Assembly (NCBI GenBank): GCA_043805855.1
Contig: JAZDHP010000032.1
Span: 1-16,220 of the forward strand
DNA: 16,220 nucleotides
Reading direction: 5' to 3'
DNA from: Candidatus Micrarchaeota archaeon
Lineage (GTDB): Archaea > Micrarchaeota > Micrarchaeia > Norongarragalinales > UBA8480
Part shown: one piece after another, positions 5,841 through 15,885 of the stretch
Position numbering within the stretch: position 1 is the stretch's first letter
How the letters are laid out: the number at the start of each line of letters is the position of its first letter
Translations under genes and position numbers: made by a program
The notes under the pieces: model-generated
Databases searched by the model: none
What the model was told of the DNA's origin: nothing
The model's input: only the letters and a program-made list of their open reading frames with translations

Positions 5841-5909
5841 TCACTAAACTCTTCTAAATTTTACATTTATGGGGGATTGGGCTAGCCTGGCTATGCTTCC
5901 AGCTTTGGG

Positions 5910-5972
5910 AAAGCTTTTTTCTTTTACAAAAGAAAAAACCTTGGAAAAAAGAAAATCCAAGCGCTTGAAAAC
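5910..5972 (+). other. tRNA-Pro intron 1 (37/38, 63 nt), carries triplex-type repeat
   Basis: Relaxed BHB: central helix TTTG/GAAA (one G.G mismatch), bulges GG|A and AC|A, closing helix AAGC/GCTT. Confidence 0.85.
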
Positions 5973-5987
5973 AGCTGGAGACCTGAG

Positions 5988-6050
5988 GAAAGCCCTTTTC
6001 TTGTAAGAAAAGGTCTTTCAGTCCCAAAAGAACTGAAATGCTTTCAGGTA
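5988..6050 (+). other. tRNA-Pro intron 2 (53/54, 63 nt), carries triplex-type repeat
   Basis: Strict BHB: central helix CCTG (5982-5985)/CAGG (6045-6048), bulges AG|G and TA|T, closing helix AAAGC/GCTTT. Confidence 0.87.
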
Positions 6051-6056
6051 TTCAAA

Positions 6057-6103
6057 TCTGCAAAATGACGAGTCATTTTGACTTTTCGCCTTGCAGACGA
6101 AAA
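6057..6103 (+). other. tRNA-Pro intron 3 (59/60, 47 nt)
   Basis: Central helix TTCA/CGAA (one A.C mismatch), bulges AA|T and AA|T, closing helix CTGCAA/TTGCAG. Confidence 0.8.
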
Positions 6104-6104
6104 T

Positions 6105-6223
6105 CTCAGATCCCCCATTCTTTTTTATAATTAGTTTAGTGGTTTCTTTTGGCCACGCCTGGCCTTTTCTTTATGAAAGAAAAGGCATGGCCTCGGATCC
6201 CCCATTTTCTTTTTTATAATTAG
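6105..6223 (+). repeat. Direct repeat of tRNA-Pro 3' end plus trailer, flanking a 57-bp insert
   Basis: CTCAGATCCCCCATTCTTTTTTATAATTAG (6105-6134) versus CTCGGATCCCCCATTTTCTTTTTTATAATTAG (6192-6223). Confidence 0.9.
6143..6186 (-). repeat. Free-standing, inverted copy of the triplex-type repeat
   Basis: Minus strand reads GCCTTTTCTTT CAT AAAGAAAA GGCCAGGCGTGGCC AAAAGAAA. Confidence 0.85.
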
Positions 6224-6224
6224 C

Positions 6225-7181
6225 CTAATTTTCAACTTTTTCTTCTGGCTTTTTCAACTTCTTAAAGTAAAACCAAACGCCCGCAATTACGATTATAATT
6301 GCTAGAAGTACAAGCGCTAAATTAGTGAAGTCAAACGAACTACTTTTTATCTTTTTCACCAGCACAAGTGTCTCTGCACTTTTCTCAACAGCGGCGTCTA
6401 CGTTTGCTGCGTTTATTGTGTTTAACTCTACAACGTTTTCAATTTCGCTTTGAACTAACGCTTCAGCTTCGGTTAGTTTTTCCTCACTTTGCACTACCAT
6501 CGGCGAGTCTCTGCCAACTGAAACTATTTTTTCGTTTAGCAACGTACGTGCTTCGCGCGTATCTTTCAGCGCCGCACCTAGTTTAGCTCCGTTTTCGTTT
6601 AAACTATTTACAAACGCGTTGAAGTCACTGTACTCGTCTTGAAAATCTTCATTTAATGTAGTTACTAATTCTAGTGTTGCGTTTCCTCGCATTTGCCGTA
6701 CAATTGTTGTTAACGCGTTTACCTTCGCGTCTGTTTTTGAAAAGTCAACTTCGGGAAGTAGAGTTTTCGCAGTTTCGGTTTTGTTCTTGGCGCTTTCCAG
6801 CTTAAGGGCAGCAGCGTCAATTATTGTGTTTACCTCGTGTTTAACTTTTCTAGCTGGTGTTTTTGCAATTATTGAATCACTTAACGCTTCTGCAGTTATT
6901 TGTAGAGTAGTTTCTCCGTTTTGTAAGTAGTCGCTACTAACTGAAGTAATTTTATCTTGGTCTTGAATTATGTTACCCTCTGTGTCAAGTACAAACGACG
7001 GCGTGTTGTTAACCAAAACTAAAACGTACGTCAAGTGAGTTTCGCTTCTAATTTGCTCTACAACTTCAAAAACAGAATAATCTTCAGTGTTGTCTAAATA
7101 TGTAGGAATGACTTTGTCAAAGTCAGCTTGCGCTGCAACTAAAAACGTAAAAGCCAAAAGGCAGAACAACAATCGCTTCAT
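6225..7181 (-). CDS. Secreted, C-terminally membrane-anchored protein (helical/coiled-coil ectodomain)
   Basis: Likely start ATG 7181 (MKRLLFCLLAFTFLVAA, signal peptide). Acidic helical middle region. C-terminal TM helix LALVLLAIIIVIAGVWFYF followed by KKLKK. Confidence 0.8.
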   Translation of the reverse strand: MKRLLFCLLAFTFLVAAQADFDKVIPTYLDNTEDYSVFEVVEQIRSETHLTYVLVLVNNTPSFVLDTEGNIIQDQDKITSVSSDYLQNGETTLQITAEALSDSIIAKTPARKVKHEVNTIIDAAALKLESAKNKTETAKTLLPEVDFSKTDAKVNALTTIVRQMRGNATLELVTTLNEDFQDEYSDFNAFVNSLNENGAKLGAALKDTREARTLLNEKIVSVGRDSPMVVQSEEKLTEAEALVQSEIENVVELNTINAANVDAAVEKSAETLVLVKKIKSSSFDFTNLALVLLAIIIVIAGVWFYFKKLKKPEEKVEN

Positions 7182-7239
7182 TTCACAAATTCCCTCTAGA
7201 AACGTTACTTCTCGCAAGTATAAAACTTGAACTGTGTGC

Positions 7240-7274
7240 CTTTCTTTTAAAAAGAAAGCCGCCGGGAAAGAAAA
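7240..7274 (+). repeat. Free-standing copy of the triplex-type repeat between divergent promoters
   Basis: CTTTCTTTT A AAAAGAAAG CCGCCGG GAAAGAAAA. Confidence 0.85.
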
Positions 7275-7294
7275 GGGGTTAACCCGGTATAGCT

Positions 7295-7301
7295 TTTTTA
7301 A
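7295..7301 (+). promoter_or_regulatory. Putative TATA box for tRNA-Tyr
   Basis: TTTTTAA ends 29 nt upstream of the mature tRNA start. Confidence 0.5.
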
Positions 7302-7366
7302 TGCTGTTTCTCCTAATTTTATTTGGTGTTCCCGCCTTAGCTCAACGGTAGAGCACCCCGCTGTAG

Positions 7367-7398
7367 CTTTGTATACTTCCTTAACCGGAAGAATAGAA
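7367..7398 (+). other. tRNA-Tyr intron 1 (37/38, 32 nt)
   Basis: BHB central helix CTGT/ATAG, bulges AG|C and AA|A, internal hairpin CTTCC/GGAAG. Confidence 0.87.
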
Positions 7399-7420
7399 AC
7401 GGGGCGGTTGTTGGTTCAAA

Positions 7421-7480
7421 CGGCTTTTCTTTTAGAAAAAGAAAAGTCCGTGGGAAAAGAAAAACTTTTCTCCATGAAAA
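7421..7480 (+). other. tRNA-Tyr intron 2 (59/60, 60 nt), carries triplex-type repeat
   Basis: Central helix TTCA (7415-7418)/TGAA (7475-7478), bulges AA|C and AA|T. Confidence 0.87.
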
Positions 7481-7599
7481 TCCGACAGGCGGGACTATTT
7501 CTTTTTCTTTGCCTATTTTTTCAATATATTTTTAGGGTGCACTTTTCGCTTTTTGTTAAAATGTGCTCCCTAACTATGTTTTGTACAGATCCTTATCCT

Positions 7600-7606
7600 T
7601 TTTTAA
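7600..7606 (+). promoter_or_regulatory. Putative TATA box (leaderless transcript)
   Basis: TTTTTAA ends 23 nt before ATG 7630. The same spacing occurs at 8546-8552 and 13677-13683. Confidence 0.5.
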
Positions 7607-7629
7607 TTCAATTTTACTTAGTATTTATT

Positions 7630-8490
7630 ATGAGTGAAGAACGCGGTAAAACTGGAAGGGAATTTGTAATTGTTAGCCGAAAGGAGCTTGTAGTTCCAGA
7701 ACCGGTAAGGGGTAAGTCGCTTGCGAAAGACGAGCCGCCCGAGCTTGAAGATCCGAGTTTTTTTGACAGTTCAACTGAAGCGTTTGAAGTTGGTGGTTAT
7801 CATTTTATACGTCCACAAGAGGATTATCATCGCCGTAGCCAGCCTACTTTTTCACTTGGGAAACATGAAAAAGGGTTCATTAGTGCTAACAATGGGGTTG
7901 TAGCTATTAGCACTAATCATGGTACATTTGTAGGCTATCCTGGGCCTGGTTTTCATTCAGCAGCTTCTAGAGCTGGTTTTGTTCGGGGGGCGTATAATGA
8001 ATCTGTTCCGCATTCAAATTATACTGACTCACCTTGGCTTTTTGAAAGGATTGACCTGCGGACTGGCCGTTTGAAACCAGAATATTTACACTTGTTTAAT
8101 CGTAGATATAAACCGCCAAAACCACGCGCGAAGGAAGCAGCTCCAGAAGTTGAAGAGCCTAAATCTCCGGTCCAGCTGTTAATTTCTGACATTAAAGACG
8201 ACCACGTCGCTTTCCGCACACTTCATAATCTAATAGACGACGAAATGGCATACGCGTTTACTGCCACTGAGATTCACAAGCCAAACCCCGCAGTTATAGC
8301 TTACGCAGTTAGAAAATTAGGTTTGTCCCGTGCTTCGGCTCCAGAGAAGATGCGGAAAGATGTTAAAGAACTTTTACAGCGATTTCACCCTGACAAGTTT
8401 AAACCGCGAGGTTTTGACCAAGAAGCACATCGTAAAGTTGTTGACCTTTTAAACTCAGTTCGCGGCTTCCTACGAAAAGCTTCTGATTAA
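7630..8490 (+). CDS. Hypothetical protein with C-terminal J-domain-like region (286 aa)
   Basis: Likely start ATG 7630 (MSEERGK). C-terminal AVRKLGLS...KDVKELLQRFHPDK...LLNSVRGFL resembles a J domain, with HPD at 8386-8394. Confidence 0.7.
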   Translation: MSEERGKTGREFVIVSRKELVVPEPVRGKSLAKDEPPELEDPSFFDSSTEAFEVGGYHFIRPQEDYHRRSQPTFSLGKHEKGFISANNGVVAISTNHGTFVGYPGPGFHSAASRAGFVRGAYNESVPHSNYTDSPWLFERIDLRTGRLKPEYLHLFNRRYKPPKPRAKEAAPEVEEPKSPVQLLISDIKDDHVAFRTLHNLIDDEMAYAFTATEIHKPNPAVIAYAVRKLGLSRASAPEKMRKDVKELLQRFHPDKFKPRGFDQEAHRKVVDLLNSVRGFLRKASD

Positions 8491-11149: not shown

Positions 11150-12297
11150 AACGAACTATTGAAGGGAGTTTTGCAGTTGCAGAAGCGACGAAAAACTGCG
11201 AGCCAGAAGTAGTAGCGTGCTATCCAATTACTCCCTCTACTCATATTGCTGAAGAGCTAGCGCAGTTCTACGCTGACGGTAAGCTTAAGCAGTACATTGC
11301 GGTTGAAAGTGAATTCGCAGCAATATCCGCTTTAATCGGCGCAAGTGCAACTGGCGCACGTACGTTTTCAACAACGTCAAGCCAAGGCCTCGCGTTGATG
11401 AACGAAGTGCTGTTTACAGTTTCAGGAATGCGTTTGCCAATTGTAATGGCAGTTGCAAACCGCGCGTTGTCAGCGCCGCTGAACATATGGAACGACCACC
11501 AAGACGCTGTTTCCGAGCGCGACAGTGGATGGATTCAACTTTACTGCGAGTCAAACCAAGAAGCAACCGACACAATTCCCCAAGCGTTTAAAATCGCTGA
11601 GAAAACTTTATTGCCTGTTATGGTCAACATGGATGGATTTTATCTAACGCACAGCGTTGAGCAAATTGACGTTCCAGAAAAAGAGTTAATTGCAAAATTC
11701 TTATCGAAATTTAATCCCGAGATTAAACTCGACCCGCAAAACCCGCTAAGTTTAGGAGTTTACGCATTTCCAGAGCACTACCAATCTTTCCGCGAGGATT
11801 TACACCAAGATTTAATCGCGTCGCAAAAAATAATAACTGAAGTAAACGCCGAATGGGCGAAACTAACTGGGCGTAATTATGGCAACGGGTTGTGGGAAGA
11901 AATTAATCTTCACGACGCCGAGTACGTAATCGTAGCAATGGGCTCAGTTATTGGAAATGTTAAAAGCGTTATAAATGAAGAGTTGCAAAAAGGGAACAAA
12001 AAGTGGGGTTGCCTGCGCTTGAAATCCCTGCGGCCGTTTCCAACTCAAATTGCTTCTCTACTTAGCGGTAAAAAGTCAATTGGTGTTTTCGAAAAGGCGC
12101 TTTCACTAGGCGCGCCTGCAGTACTTTACAGCGAATTACGTAGTGCGTTGTACGATTGCAAGGAAAGCGCATCGCAGCGTCCAATTGTTTCAAGTTTCGT
12201 CGGCGGCTTAGGTGGTAGAGATATAACTCGCCAGCATATTCGAGATTTATTTACAAAATTAGAAAAAGGCACTGGCAGTGTGCAGCAATTCATTTGA
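11146..12297 (+). CDS. porA: Pyruvate/2-oxoacid:ferredoxin oxidoreductase alpha subunit
   Basis: YPITPST, VESEFAA, TSSQGL, NRALSAPLNIWNDHQD, GGLGGRD. Likely start is GTG 11146, overlapping the porD stop (GTGA). Confidence 0.95.
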   Translation: MKRTIEGSFAVAEATKNCEPEVVACYPITPSTHIAEELAQFYADGKLKQYIAVESEFAAISALIGASATGARTFSTTSSQGLALMNEVLFTVSGMRLPIVMAVANRALSAPLNIWNDHQDAVSERDSGWIQLYCESNQEATDTIPQAFKIAEKTLLPVMVNMDGFYLTHSVEQIDVPEKELIAKFLSKFNPEIKLDPQNPLSLGVYAFPEHYQSFREDLHQDLIASQKIITEVNAEWAKLTGRNYGNGLWEEINLHDAEYVIVAMGSVIGNVKSVINEELQKGNKKWGCLRLKSLRPFPTQIASLLSGKKSIGVFEKALSLGAPAVLYSELRSALYDCKESASQRPIVSSFVGGLGGRDITRQHIRDLFTKLEKGTGSVQQFI

Positions 12298-12298
12298 G

Positions 12299-13669
12299 AT
12301 GTTACAAAAAATGGCAGCAGTACTTGGTTTGGAAAAAGAACAATTGTTTGAAAAAGGACAGCGAGCATGCGCTGGCTGTGGTGCAACAATTGCAATGCAC
12401 TTAATTCTCGACGTAGTTGGAAAAGATTGCATTATAGTAAACTCAACAGGGTGCATGGAAATTATCTCTTCTCCATTTCCAGAAACCGCGTGGAACGTGC
12501 CGTACATTCACGCTAATTTTGAAAACGCAGCTGCAGTTGCAAGCGGAGTAAGCCGCGCGTTGAAAGCAAAAGGCAACGACCACACTAAAGTAGTTGTAAT
12601 CGCAGGCGACGGCGCAACTTACGACATTGGCTTTGGAGTTTTATCTGGTATGCTCGAACGCAACGAAGACGTACTTTACATTTGCTACGATAATGAAGCG
12701 TATATGAACTGTCTTAGCTTGGACTCGTTGATTTACACTGAAAATGGCTTGAAAAAAATAACTGAGGTTAAAGTTGGAGAAAAAGTTTATGCGTTTAATC
12801 AACAAAATGGCGAACTAGTGTTGAAAAAATGCACTGGCGTTTTTGACAACGGCGTAAAACCAGTTTATGAATTGTTAACTGGCCATCATTCTATAAAAGC
12901 AACTGCAAATCACCCGTTTCTCGTTGTGCAACGCAATGGTAAAAGCGGACACAATGAATTAGTCTGGAAAGAACTTGCGCTGCTAAAGCCAGAAGAAGAG
13001 ATAATGACTTTGAAAAATATCAAAGACAAAGAACCATTTGTTCCCGCAAAAATTATTTCAATTAAGTTAATTAAAGACGAGCCGACGCTTGACTTGCGTG
13101 TTGAAGGCGAGCATAATTTTGTAGCAGATGGAATTGTAGTTCACAATACGGGTGTGCAGCGGAGTAGTTCAACGCCGAAATTCGCTTCAACTACAACTTC
13201 GAAAGTTGGCTCTGAGATTCTCGGCAAGCAGGAGTTGAAAAAGCCAATTTTGGAAATCGTCGCTAGCCATAAGATTCCCTACGCTGCGTCGACAAGCGTT
13301 GCCTATCCATTTGATGTTTACAATAAATTGAAAAAAGCTCTTTCATTCAAAGGTGCGAAGTTTCTATTAATCCACGCGCCTTGCGTTCCAGGTTGGGTTT
13401 ACCCAACTAGCAAGACGCTCGAGATGGCCAGGCTTGCAATTGACACTGGAATGTGGAAAATGCTTGAATACGAAAACGGAAAATGGAAAATTACGAAAAC
13501 ACCATCTTTCAAACCAGTAAAAGAATACCTCTCACTGCAAAAGAGATTCGCACACGTTACCGAAGCACAAGAAAAACACTTGGAAGAGCAAATTAAGTTC
13601 GAATTCGAAGCACTACAAAAACTAGTCAACGCGACTAATGCTCCAACCGCTCCAGCGGCAACGCAGTGA
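12299..13669 (+). CDS. porB: Pyruvate/2-oxoacid:ferredoxin oxidoreductase beta subunit, intein-containing
   Basis: RACAGCG, TGCMEI, FENAAAVASG, GDGATYDIG...YDNEAYMN[intein]TGVQRSSSTP, APCVPGW. Likely start is ATG 12299, just after the porA stop. Confidence 0.95.
   Translation: MLQKMAAVLGLEKEQLFEKGQRACAGCGATIAMHLILDVVGKDCIIVNSTGCMEIISSPFPETAWNVPYIHANFENAAAVASGVSRALKAKGNDHTKVVVIAGDGATYDIGFGVLSGMLERNEDVLYICYDNEAYMNCLSLDSLIYTENGLKKITEVKVGEKVYAFNQQNGELVLKKCTGVFDNGVKPVYELLTGHHSIKATANHPFLVVQRNGKSGHNELVWKELALLKPEEEIMTLKNIKDKEPFVPAKIISIKLIKDEPTLDLRVEGEHNFVADGIVVHNTGVQRSSSTPKFASTTTSKVGSEILGKQELKKPILEIVASHKIPYAASTSVAYPFDVYNKLKKALSFKGAKFLLIHAPCVPGWVYPTSKTLEMARLAIDTGMWKMLEYENGKWKITKTPSFKPVKEYLSLQKRFAHVTEAQEKHLEEQIKFEFEALQKLVNATNAPTAPAATQ
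12710..13147 (+). mobile_element. Mini-intein (146 aa, no homing endonuclease) in PorB
   Basis: Block A CLSLDSLIYT, block B IKATANHPFLV, block F/G TLDLRVEGEHNFVADGIVVHN, +1 Thr. Removing it restores YMN-TGVQRS. Confidence 0.95.
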
Positions 13670-14410: not shown

Positions 14411-14478
14411 TGCAACTTAGTATTTGCCTTGGTAGTGTAGTGGCCTAGCATTCAAGATTGTCACTCTTGCGACCCGGG

Positions 14479-14539
14479 AAACCCCCTTTTTCTTAAAAAG
14501 AAAAAGGCCGTTTAAGGTTCAAAAAGAAGGGTTCGAGAA
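14479..14539 (+). other. tRNA-Asp intron 1 (53/54, 61 nt), carries triplex-type repeat
   Basis: Central helix CCCG/CGAG (one C.A mismatch), bulges GG|A and AA|T, closing helix AACCC/GGGTT. Confidence 0.85.
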
Positions 14540-14545
14540 TTCAAA

Positions 14546-14588
14546 ATGCGTTTCTCTCATTTTTTCGAGAAACACAAACGCAAGAAAA
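14546..14588 (+). other. tRNA-Asp intron 2 (59/60, 43 nt)
   Basis: Central helix TTCA/AGAA (one A.A mismatch), bulges AA|A and AA|T, closing helix TGCGTTT/AAACGCA. Confidence 0.82.
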
Positions 14589-14670
14589 TCCCGGCCAAGG
14601 CGTAAAAAGCAAAGGTGTTACAGCGCCATAACGGTTCCTAATAAAGAAGGAACAAGGAAAGTGATACGTT

Positions 14671-15885
14671 ATGGCAGCTGTTGACATCTATAATTTACCT
14701 CGTAAGCTGGAGCGCTACGTGGAGCGAATTAAACAAGAACCTACTATCTGTGATTCTAATCGCGAAGCCATACTCAAATTCTTCGACTACTGTTTTGCTA
14801 ATGGCTTAAGCACTGCTCGCGTGTTAATCTATGCGCAGCGCTTGCTTCCAATTGCAAAGCTACTTGGGAAAGACTTCAAAGAAGCCACAAAAGATGACAT
14901 CCAAGCTCTAGTTGGAGAAATTGAACGTAAAGCATGGTCGCCTTGGACTAAACACTTTTACAAGGTTACTTTGAAGAAATTTTATAAGTGGCTTGAAGGT
15001 AATGACGAGTTCTCCCCTGATAAAGTCAAGTGGATAAAGGGGAGTGTAAAAAATAGTCAAAAAATGCTTCCTGAAGAGCTTCTCAGCTATCAAGATATAT
15101 TGAAAATGATTGAAGCTGCGCCGAATGCTCGTGATAAGTGCTTGATCGCAGTTCTCTTTGAAAGTGGCTGTAGAATTAGCGAACTAGCTGGTGTTAAAAT
15201 AAAACACGTTTCATTTGACGCATATGGAGCGCAGCTACTTATTGCCGGAGGCAAAACTGGAGCACGAAGAGTTCGATTAATTACTTCAGTTAACTTGTTG
15301 AAAACCTGGCTTGATTATAATCCTTGGAAAACAGATCCAGAAGCTTCACTTTGGCCTCGTTTAACTAATCGCTGGAAAGGACAACCTTTACGCTACCAAG
15401 TAATTCGTCAACGCATTGTTGACATTGCTAAAACTGCAGGCGTAACAAAGCGAGTAAATCCACATAGTTTTCGTCATGCACGCGCTACGCAATTAGCGAA
15501 AATGGGTTTGAGTGAAATTCAAATGACGGGCATAATGGGCTGGGTTGTTGCTTCTCGCCAATGTGCTACTTATGTTCATATGAGTATGCGGGATACGGAT
15601 AATACGTTGCTAAAAGCGCATGGCATTGAGGTAAAAGATGACAATTGTGAGTTTATCTGTTGTCCCCGTTGCAGCAAGCAAAACACGTTGAACTTAAGCT
15701 ACTGCGGAGGTTGTGGAATGCCTTTAAACATGAAAGCTGCCGTTAGCGCTGACGCTAAAACCGCAGAGCTTGAAAAGAATCTCGAATGGTTACGAAATAT
15801 AATAGAAAATGACGAAAGTATTAGGAATGCAATTGCCGACAAACGAGCTAACCAGTTAAAATCTTCTAGTGAAACAAACCAATAG
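14671..15885 (+). CDS. Tyrosine recombinase/integrase with C-terminal zinc ribbon
   Basis: Catalytic R (ESGCRISE), K (GKTG), HxxR (HSFRHAR), W (MGW) and Y (ATYVH). CPRC...CGGC zinc ribbon. Starts 68 nt after tRNA-Asp. Confidence 0.93.
   Translation: MAAVDIYNLPRKLERYVERIKQEPTICDSNREAILKFFDYCFANGLSTARVLIYAQRLLPIAKLLGKDFKEATKDDIQALVGEIERKAWSPWTKHFYKVTLKKFYKWLEGNDEFSPDKVKWIKGSVKNSQKMLPEELLSYQDILKMIEAAPNARDKCLIAVLFESGCRISELAGVKIKHVSFDAYGAQLLIAGGKTGARRVRLITSVNLLKTWLDYNPWKTDPEASLWPRLTNRWKGQPLRYQVIRQRIVDIAKTAGVTKRVNPHSFRHARATQLAKMGLSEIQMTGIMGWVVASRQCATYVHMSMRDTDNTLLKAHGIEVKDDNCEFICCPRCSKQNTLNLSYCGGCGMPLNMKAAVSADAKTAELEKNLEWLRNIIENDESIRNAIADKRANQLKSSSETNQ

Follow-up and report, generated by a model that had tools for sequence, protein, structure and literature searches.

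How does a tRNA gene come to be followed by a second copy of its own 3′ end, with a small hairpin-bearing repeat between the two? The question is raised by positions 6105–6223 of contig JAZDHP010000032.1 of a Candidatus Micrarchaeota archaeon (assembly GCA_043805855.1), where the end of the tRNA-Pro(UGG) gene and part of its trailer stand on both sides of a 57-bp module that we call X. The window analyzed here is the entire contig (C32), 16,220 nt long. It belongs to a draft genome (G000) of 1.03 Mb in 67 contigs, with ~41% G+C and an assembly completeness of 92%. The genes of the window are archaeal and include those for the proteasome alpha subunit, SBDS, a pair of exosome subunits of RNase PH type, and subunits of pyruvate:ferredoxin oxidoreductase. 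For comparison we used three genomes of the same genus (G001–G003), metagenome contigs (L035–L040), and a sequencing run (X1). The duplication is confirmed, and its interpretation as the footprint of an insertion event, made in a first-pass annotation of the bare letters, is supported in its general form. We tentatively favor a single insertion of the module that duplicated part of its target.

The tRNA-Pro(UGG) 3′ end is present twice

Copy 1 of the repeat (6105–6134, forward strand) consists of 13 nt of tRNA and 17 nt of trailer. Copy 2 (6192–6223, forward strand) consists of a pseudo-3′ exon, CTCGGATCCCCCA, and 19 nt of trailer. Local alignment of the two gave 29/30 identical positions, a single A/G substitution (6108/6195), and one 2-nt indel, so that the coordinates and differences given in the first-pass annotation were right. 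The alignment score of 23.0 compares with a maximum of 14.5 for shuffled sequences (n = 2000) and, for random genome places with the same geometry (n = 3000), with a 99.9th percentile of 17.5 and a maximum of 24.5. The pair was also recovered by ungapped repeat detection (family D1). The repeat is far above chance.

Where in the tRNA does the repeat begin? Standard tRNA finders overlook the tRNA-Pro gene entirely, and neither ARAGORN nor Rfam detected a tRNA in the raw window. With introns allowed, ARAGORN found 11 tRNAs across the whole genome, and the Infernal tRNA model gave 19 partial matches only. The finders fail on the raw sequence because nearly all tRNA genes here hold several non-canonical introns. 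Exon boundaries of tRNA-Pro were read by eye, and the exons were then joined in silico and tested with ARAGORN. Joining 5871–5909, 5973–5987, 6051–6056, and 6104–6117 gave a 74-nt product that ARAGORN identified as tRNA-Pro(UGG).

The gene lies on the forward strand. Its first exon (positions 1–37; 5871–5909) is 39 nt long, identical in six metagenome loci and present in G001–G003. It is followed by an intron at 37/38 (5910–5972) that is a sense-orientation module, with hairpin plus purine tract. After exon 2 (positions 38–53; 5973–5987) comes an intron at 53/54 (5988–6050), also a module, of the GAAAGCCC...GGTCTTTCAGTCCC subfamily, with 94% identical copies on C45 and C8. Exon 3 holds T-loop positions 54–59 (6051–6056); this exon and exon 2 are placed by the in silico splice. 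The last intron, at 59/60 (6057–6103), is a plain hairpin rather than a triplex module and forms 3/4 pairs in the UUCA:CGAA splice-site helix. Exon 4, the working 3′ exon (6104–6117), runs from U60 to the discriminator A73, and its sequence, TCTCAGATCCCCCA, is identical in nine orthologous loci. The valid spliced product bears out the introns at 37/38, 53/54, and 59/60 and puts the beginning of the repeat at position 61. The repeat starts with C61, one base past U60, the first base of the 3′ exon; the earlier placement of the duplication one base past the 59/60 junction is thereby upheld.

The word GATCCCCCA occurs twice in the genome, both times at the present locus, and the matching 5′ acceptor word GGGGGAT[TA][GA]G occurs once, in the intact gene. 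By these counts the genome has a single tRNA-Pro(UGG) gene plus an additional 3′ end. A gene on C35 that ARAGORN called tRNA-Pro has a different acceptor stem by eye and was rejected as a second tRNA-Pro(UGG).

The intervening 57 bp are a copy of a dispersed module

Module X (6135–6191, forward strand) is composed of a filler TTTAGTGG, a pyrimidine tract TTTCTTTTGG, a frame GGCCACGCCTG, a pyrimidine/purine (Y/R) hairpin at 6163–6185, and a closing GGCATGGC. We built a profile from six seed copies (on C32, C22, C59, C8, C34, and C9). Its top match genome-wide was 6138–6191, with E = 4.4e-17, the window copy being itself one of the six seeds. Nine strong copies with E < 1e-5 were found, on C32, C22, C59, C8, C34, C9, C10, C45, and C29, together with many weaker matches to the general hairpin family. 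The exact 14-nt core of X was present only in the four genomes of the present genus among the 12 family genomes searched.

In the copy at 6135–6191 the pyrimidine tract comes first and the hairpin last. In 23 T-loop intron copies the hairpin comes first, directly after the 5′ exon. As the orientation is opposite to that of these introns, the term "antisense" is apt for X here, and the claim that the 57 bp between the copies are almost entirely the repeat element in antisense orientation is borne out by both the profile match and the reversed order. Elsewhere, X lies inside real introns and ends at or near the 3′ exon (C59, C34, C10, and C29; G001:C83 and G002:C28), takes the opposite orientation (C22 and several introns of relatives), or is free and intergenic (C8 and G001:C69).

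By eye, the mirror-symmetric third tract was kept in 17/17 X copies from G000–G003. In the same 17/17 copies the number of T residues from GG to C in the upstream tract equals the number from CC to C in the hairpin arm, be it 3, 4, or 5. This mirror covariation of tract and arm matches what would be expected of a triple helix.

Some copies of the module have further elaborations. The X frame GGCCACGCCTG...ATGGC on C45 (23343–23449) encloses, ahead of the Y/R hairpin, a nested double hairpin of 52 nt, and on C5 (5170–5380) it occurs as two tandem copies that contain another kind of hairpin. Many module hairpin centers read TTTAnAAA. At G002:C36:25600–25760 (L124:5800–5960) a tRNA gene begins 3 nt past a module hairpin whose center, TTTTAAAAA, is TATA-like. 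Going by such centers, the modules might act as portable, symmetric promoters.

Orthologous loci have a single 3′ end

Do relatives have an empty site? We compared nine orthologous tRNA-Pro(UGG) loci, three from G001–G003 and six from the metagenome contigs L035–L040, the latter selected by the common 39-nt first exon; L035/L039 and L038/L040 look like near-identical pairs. Each locus has a single 3′ end, TCTCAGATCCCCCA, with the sequence of copy 1, and copy 2 is absent from 9/9. The empty sites with a single repeat copy that the first-pass annotation envisaged are thus found in all nine.

Intron content varies among these loci. The 37/38 intron is absent in L038 and L040 and present in the other seven, the 53/54 intron is absent in G001, L036, and L037, and the 59/60 intron has a homologue only in the metagenome locus L037. 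Viewed across the set (5871–6117 compared with L002–L004 and L035–L040), the orthologues carry one to three introns, in four combinations of 37/38, 53/54, and 59/60.

The arrangement recurs at other gene ends

We asked if other hairpins are flanked by direct repeats. In the present genome, all 76 perfect Y/R hairpins (arms of at least 8) were scanned for direct repeats between their 125-nt flanks. Flanking repeats were found at 3/76 hairpins, with scores of 24.0, 23.0, and 21.5, and the present locus is among them. Random control places (n = 1000) had a 99th percentile of 13.5 and a maximum of 21.0. The possibility, raised in the annotation, that other copies also carry flanking duplications is therefore borne out for a tRNA-Ile gene on C9 and an endonuclease gene on C10; it does not extend to the family at large, given only three such hairpins among the 76.

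At tRNA-Ile(GAU) on C9, the 14-nt 3′ exon and ~27 nt of trailer are followed by X and then by the 14 nt and trailer again, a repeat of 41/39 nt that starts at U60. The G002 orthologue of tRNA-Ile has no intron, no module, and no duplicate, with one 3′ end; no synteny was found between G000 and G002 within 1 kb around the gene.

On C10 (G000:C10:28917–29046, locus L025) a module stands between two copies of a gene's last 29 nt, the second of which is followed by the next gene. The gene with the duplicated end encodes a tRNA-splicing endonuclease catalytic domain (tRNA_int_endo, PF01974, E = 7e-13), and the module belongs to another subfamily than X. This junction is uninterrupted in G003 (empty) and carries module plus duplication in G002 and G000 (filled). 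G002 and G000 differ in the module's outer stem by a compensating pair, CGAT/ATCG vs. CGAC/GTCG.

Gene 5′ ends are duplicated as well. The first 27 nt of tRNA-Tyr (up to 83 nt with the promoter) are repeated ahead of a sense module in G002 and G003, and in L036 these 5′-end repeats form a tandem array. A 14-nt repeat of a tRNA 5′ end is found on C45. On C42 (G000:C42:1160–1360), a 68-nt exact repeat, ~75 nt by eye with one 1-nt indel, surrounds a different, GC-rich hairpin element. The repeated stretch is the ribosome-binding site and first 22 codons of a protein gene, and the truncated copy abuts the hairpin.

The independent assembly G002 was scanned as well (36/36 contigs, 50 hairpins) and gave three loci with flanking repeats: the 5′ end of tRNA-Tyr (83 nt), the endonuclease junction, and a tRNA 5′ end on its contig C36. 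At the last of these, 17-nt repeats of the tRNA 5′ end surround two inverted modules, each copy bordering on a hairpin end. Six single-element loci share a polarity, as read by eye, with the truncated copy at the hairpin end and the intact gene at the tract end. The flanking repeats are 14–83 nt long. Recurrence at tRNA-Ile, at the endonuclease gene, and at tRNA 5′ ends supports a duplication that is linked to the element and speaks against an integrase island that collapsed.

Copy 2 lacks the splice-site helix

Could copy 2 be used as an exon? Splicing to copy 2 in silico gave a valid tRNA-Pro(UGG) cloverleaf with a U50–G64 pair (ARAGORN). In the 59/60 introns of this genome, the intron end YGAA pairs and covaries with the T-loop UUCR and is followed by AAU. 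The splice-site helix had 4/4 pairs in 17 of the 23 T-loop introns, 3/4 in five, and none in one. At the 3′ end of copy 1 we counted 3/4 pairs here and 4/4 on C9; at copy 2 the count was 1/4 both here and on C9. The tRNA-Ser(CGA) gene on C59 splices in silico at the end of X without the usual helix, and the product is valid; there the AUGGC end of X pairs with the opening bases of the intron. In tRNA-Pro we found no such partner beyond the 5′ splice site. As copy 2 has no splice-site helix, its use as an alternative exon is unsupported, and from its sequence it is most likely a dead pseudo-exon. The proposal that copy 2 could serve as an alternative 3′ exon was thus correct as to pairing into a valid cloverleaf and falls short at the splice site, with only 1/4 helix pairs vs. 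at least 3/4 in 22/23 introns.

A possible trace of an older 3′ exon and trailer in the tRNA-Ser intron on C59 (9/12 matches by eye) failed the flank-repeat scan and was rejected. At the tRNA-Ser locus of G002 the T-loop intron is another one, and a duplicate is absent.

How the duplication may have arisen

With a probability of roughly 0.4, we favor a one-step insertion of the 57-bp module behind tRNA-Pro(UGG) that duplicated ~30 bp of target. A small non-coding module would have inserted at the DNA level just behind the only tRNA-Pro(UGG) gene of the lineage, duplicating the last 13 nt of the tRNA and 17 nt of trailer. The upstream copy would remain in the working gene, spliced at the normal bulge-helix-bulge site at 59/60, and the downstream copy would be a dead pseudo-exon in which drift has begun with one substitution and one 2-nt indel. 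Later unequal recombination between the copies could delete or amplify the unit. Insertion and duplication would be a single event, by staggered breaks and fill-in, and the responsible enzyme would be host-encoded or act in trans. Such an insertion with a long staggered duplication fits both the filled/empty pair at the endonuclease junction and the two-module locus on G002:C36. Module scars outside the spliced region and filled and empty sites among species point to a DNA-level rather than an RNA-level process. What stands of the insertion footprint first proposed is a duplication linked to the element, on the strength of the 9/9 empty orthologues, the recurrence, and the filled/empty pair; the variant in which a tRNA-integrated island collapsed is not supported.

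Several observations weigh against a one-step insertion. Flanking repeats at only 3/76 hairpins in G000 and at three loci among 50 hairpins in G002 mean that the arrival of a module does not regularly bring duplication with it, and repeat lengths of 14–83 nt are unlike a duplication made by a transposase. Both tRNA repeats begin within one base of the 59/60 junction, which a random staggered cut does not explain. A search of the 92% complete assembly for a Y1 transposase (Y1_Tnp) and a reverse transcriptase (RVT_1) found neither; it did not extend to further transposase families. A ~90% identical contig from X1 shares 6101–6149 (3′ exon, trailer, and start of X) with the window, continues with 529 other letters, and resumes at 6240, which suggests that the left part of X was present before copy 2 arose. 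Truncated modules, with the pyrimidine tract and part of the frame and without a second copy, lie behind tRNA-Pro(UGG) in L039, tRNA-Pro(CGG) on C34, and a further tRNA on C8. Finally, the four sequencing runs compared contained relatives or module copies only (best word share 0.12) and gave no contig across the stretch.

Part of this evidence would be expected had the module come first. X or its left half would already have stood behind tRNA-Pro, and a replication or repair error at the hairpin or triplex, by template switch or microhomology-mediated repair, would later have placed a copy of the 30 bp preceding the module beyond the hairpin. We consider this order of events somewhat unlikely overall; the data accord with it no less than with a one-step target-site duplication. 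Besides the truncated modules on C34 and C8, locus L039 has the X tract and frame behind tRNA-Pro(UGG) without hairpin and without second copy, and in all three cases the truncated module follows a homologous T-rich trailer. The X1 contig has trailer and X start but not 6150–6239, the polarity of the six single-element loci is in keeping with copying across the hairpin, and the tRNA-Tyr repeat in G002 includes the module's own purine tract. The intermediate at tRNA-Pro would read as a complete module followed by CCTAATTTTC, without copy 2, yet at none of the places duplicated elsewhere did we find a complete module directly before the downstream flank. At the endonuclease locus just the empty and the fully duplicated state were seen, and the two inverted modules on G002:C36, with both 17-nt copies at hairpin ends, look like a classical insertion. 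A distinctly unlikely alternative draws on a second tRNA-Pro allele, from a sister chromosome or incoming DNA, with an X-type T-loop intron abutting its 3′ exon. An illegitimate crossover from the resident trailer to the intron of this allele would leave intron end, 3′ exon, and trailer behind the gene, as in a small-scale analogue of the Sugahara et al (2012; PMC3293823) model. It would explain why, both here and on C9, the border of X and copy 2 lies within a base of the splice junction, and X does directly end real introns beside a 3′ exon in tRNA-Ser(CGA) on C59, on C34, C10, and C29, and at G001:C83 and G002:C28; in the X1 relative, X immediately precedes the 3′ part of tRNA-Tyr, a place taken in G000 by a different type of intron. 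But real T-loop introns ending in X have at least AAT after X before the T stem, whereas X abuts position 61 here and position 60 on C9. The architecture at the end of a protein gene cannot derive from an intron-bearing allele, and an X-type intron in tRNA-Pro is found in 0/9 orthologous loci.

An assembly chimera, in which the assembler joined two strain variants through the shared ~54-nt module, is very unlikely. The draft does have 67 contigs, X copies share ~30 nt of exact sequence, the closest related contig (X1) differs exactly at 6150–6239, and none of the runs compared contains the present genome. A chimera would nevertheless need a pair of alleles differing by 30 bp moved across the module, at two loci (C32 and C9); a like architecture exists in the independent assemblies G002, G003, and L036, and with the copies only 87 nt apart, one short read could span both junctions. 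We rate slightly lower again the chance that copy 2 is a functional second 3′ exon, reached by alternative splicing of a read-through transcript or transcribed separately as a 3′ mini-half. The valid copy-2 product, the helix-free splicing of tRNA-Ser(CGA) at the end of X, a TATA-like TTTATAA in the trailer before X, and a T run after copy 2 would agree with such use. Against it stand the 1/4 helix pairs, the missing AUGGC partner that C59 has, and the dispensability of copy 2 in 9/9 relatives. The sole matching set of 5′ exons in the genome has its own 3′ exon, and as the genome holds no orphan 5′ half, a split-gene half is unlikely, although the pseudo-exon could be mistaken for one in annotation. 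Least probable of all is that the copies are attL and attR of a tRNA-targeting integrative element once present between them and since reduced by deletion to 57 bp. A tRNA 3′ end in direct repeat is the classic integration border (PMC3293823), a tyrosine recombinase gene lies within the window at 14671–15885, and the X1 contig has 529 non-matching letters after the start of X. Against this idea, the other half of the original proposal, speak the one copy of a genome-wide 54-nt module between the repeats, likewise at tRNA-Ile, and a protein-gene case that has no att logic. The recombinase is 8.5 kb away beside tRNA-Asp, with none between the repeats. An integrase island between the repeats, which the annotation had thought relatives might carry, was looked for and is absent from 9/9 orthologous loci, and the X1 contig has no copy 2 before 6240.

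Relation to known systems

In the model of Sugahara et al (2012; PMC3293823), an element that carries a recombinase introduces an intron and leaves behind part of the tRNA in direct repeat. The likeness lies in a partial tRNA copy as a direct repeat by an intact gene, tied to the gain of introns and to heterogeneity between close relatives. Unlike the 1.8-kb recombinase-coding insert and 5′ fragment repeat of that model, the present locus has a gene-less 57-bp repeat, a duplicated 3′ end, and no recombinase at the site, and there is a protein-gene case too.

How protein-spliced introns reach archaeal tRNA genes is an unsettled question that these loci touch on. Fujishima et al reportedly described, in 2010, intron families common to the tRNA genes of Thermoproteales ("intron transposition"). 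To our knowledge, no flanking exon-end duplications and no free copies behind genes have been described for these families. They served as a positive control in a preprint (bioRxiv 10.64898/2026.10.13.758758). The present module resembles them in that one sequence family occupies many intron positions in many tRNA genes of one genome, with turnover between relatives; it differs in occurring also outside tRNA genes and with long flanking repeats.

Small non-autonomous hairpin repeats include miniature inverted-repeat transposable elements (MITEs) and the REP/BIME/REPIN repeats with their RAYT transposases. Like these, the modules are short, gene-less, and structured, occur in dozens of copies, show filled and empty sites between relatives, and can be nested (C45). 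In contrast to them, flanking repeats here are rare (3/76), long, and variable (14–83 nt) rather than short and of fixed length, a Y1 transposase was not found, and the modules keep a mirror-symmetric third tract. Measured as MITE-like elements, they thus have the dispersed copies with empty sites and lack both the duplication of fixed length and the cognate transposase. Split and tri-split tRNA genes are known from Nanoarchaeum and Caldivirga. A stand-alone piece coding only for a tRNA 3′ end, with a structured leader ahead, is common to both, whereas here there is no orphan 5′ partner, and 87 nt upstream the gene is intact and has a 3′ end of its own.

A 2025 study (PMC11782384) deals with short direct repeats close to splice sites and included four introns from Archaea and one archaeal-type intron from a fungal nucleus; the repeats are much shorter than those seen here. 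Among the literature matches listed we found no description of long gene-end duplications around small hairpin modules in DPANN archaea, which is not proof of absence. What is new here is the long gene-end duplications flanking the modules, a variant of small repeat insertion and of partial tRNA-gene duplication.

It is unlikely that the order gene end, module, gene end is the first stage in the birth of an archaeal tRNA intron. Modules would enter next to or inside tRNA genes with long exon duplications, and cells would keep the working copy. Later loss of the upstream exon copy would turn trailer and module into a T-loop intron ending in a module, comparable to that of tRNA-Ser(CGA) on C59. 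If so, the genus would preserve stages of intron arrival at the DNA level, a route called open by a 2026 census of Asgard tRNA genes. The loci described here are places where the DNA-level process can be followed in population data.

Neighboring genes and other features of the window

Immediately downstream of copy 2, on the reverse strand, lies a 330-codon open reading frame (ORF; 6225–7217) for a secreted or anchored protein, with a signal-like N-terminus, a C-terminal hydrophobic stretch, and no Pfam family. In G002, G003, L036, and L037, tRNA-Tyr directly follows tRNA-Pro. The ORF separates the two genes only in the present lineage, and it is carried by the ~90% identical X1 contig. A protein-guided search of the metagenome contigs with the upstream ORF gave no match.

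Beyond the ORF, on the forward strand, a sense module (7240–7275) stands upstream of the tRNA-Tyr promoter; in G002, G003, and L036 a duplicated 5′ exon precedes it. In the window, 7240–7330 keeps the module and promoter and at most a remnant of a pseudo-exon. The tRNA-Tyr(GUA) gene itself (7331–7494, forward strand; boundaries by eye) has anticodon and T-loop introns, with 4/4 helix pairs for the T-loop intron, and an Infernal partial match at 7338–7424. A listed 418-codon ORF (7234–8490) overlaps tRNA-Tyr and the module upstream of it. The first ~130 codons of this ORF are probably non-coding, and the ATG at 7630 is a likelier start.

Two paralogous genes follow truncated X elsewhere in the genome (C34:1–370 and C45:27800–28160), with the same ~70 nt ahead of each. 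The C34 paralogue is directly behind tRNA-Pro(CGG) and the C45 paralogue is at the contig end. These sites are possibly a rearrangement hot spot, or the gene may be mobile.

Toward the end of the window (14426–15885), a multi-intron tRNA-Asp(GUC) gene ends near 14603 (by eye), and a 404-codon tyrosine recombinase gene comes next on that strand. This layout is typical of an integrated element; with the contig ending at 16220, the far border would lie out of view. The genome has two tyrosine recombinases, the one beside tRNA-Asp (14671–15885) and another on C12. The thiamine pyrophosphate (TPP)-binding subunit of the pyruvate:ferredoxin oxidoreductase cluster (12278–13669) contains an intein (Intein_splicing, E = 6e-13).

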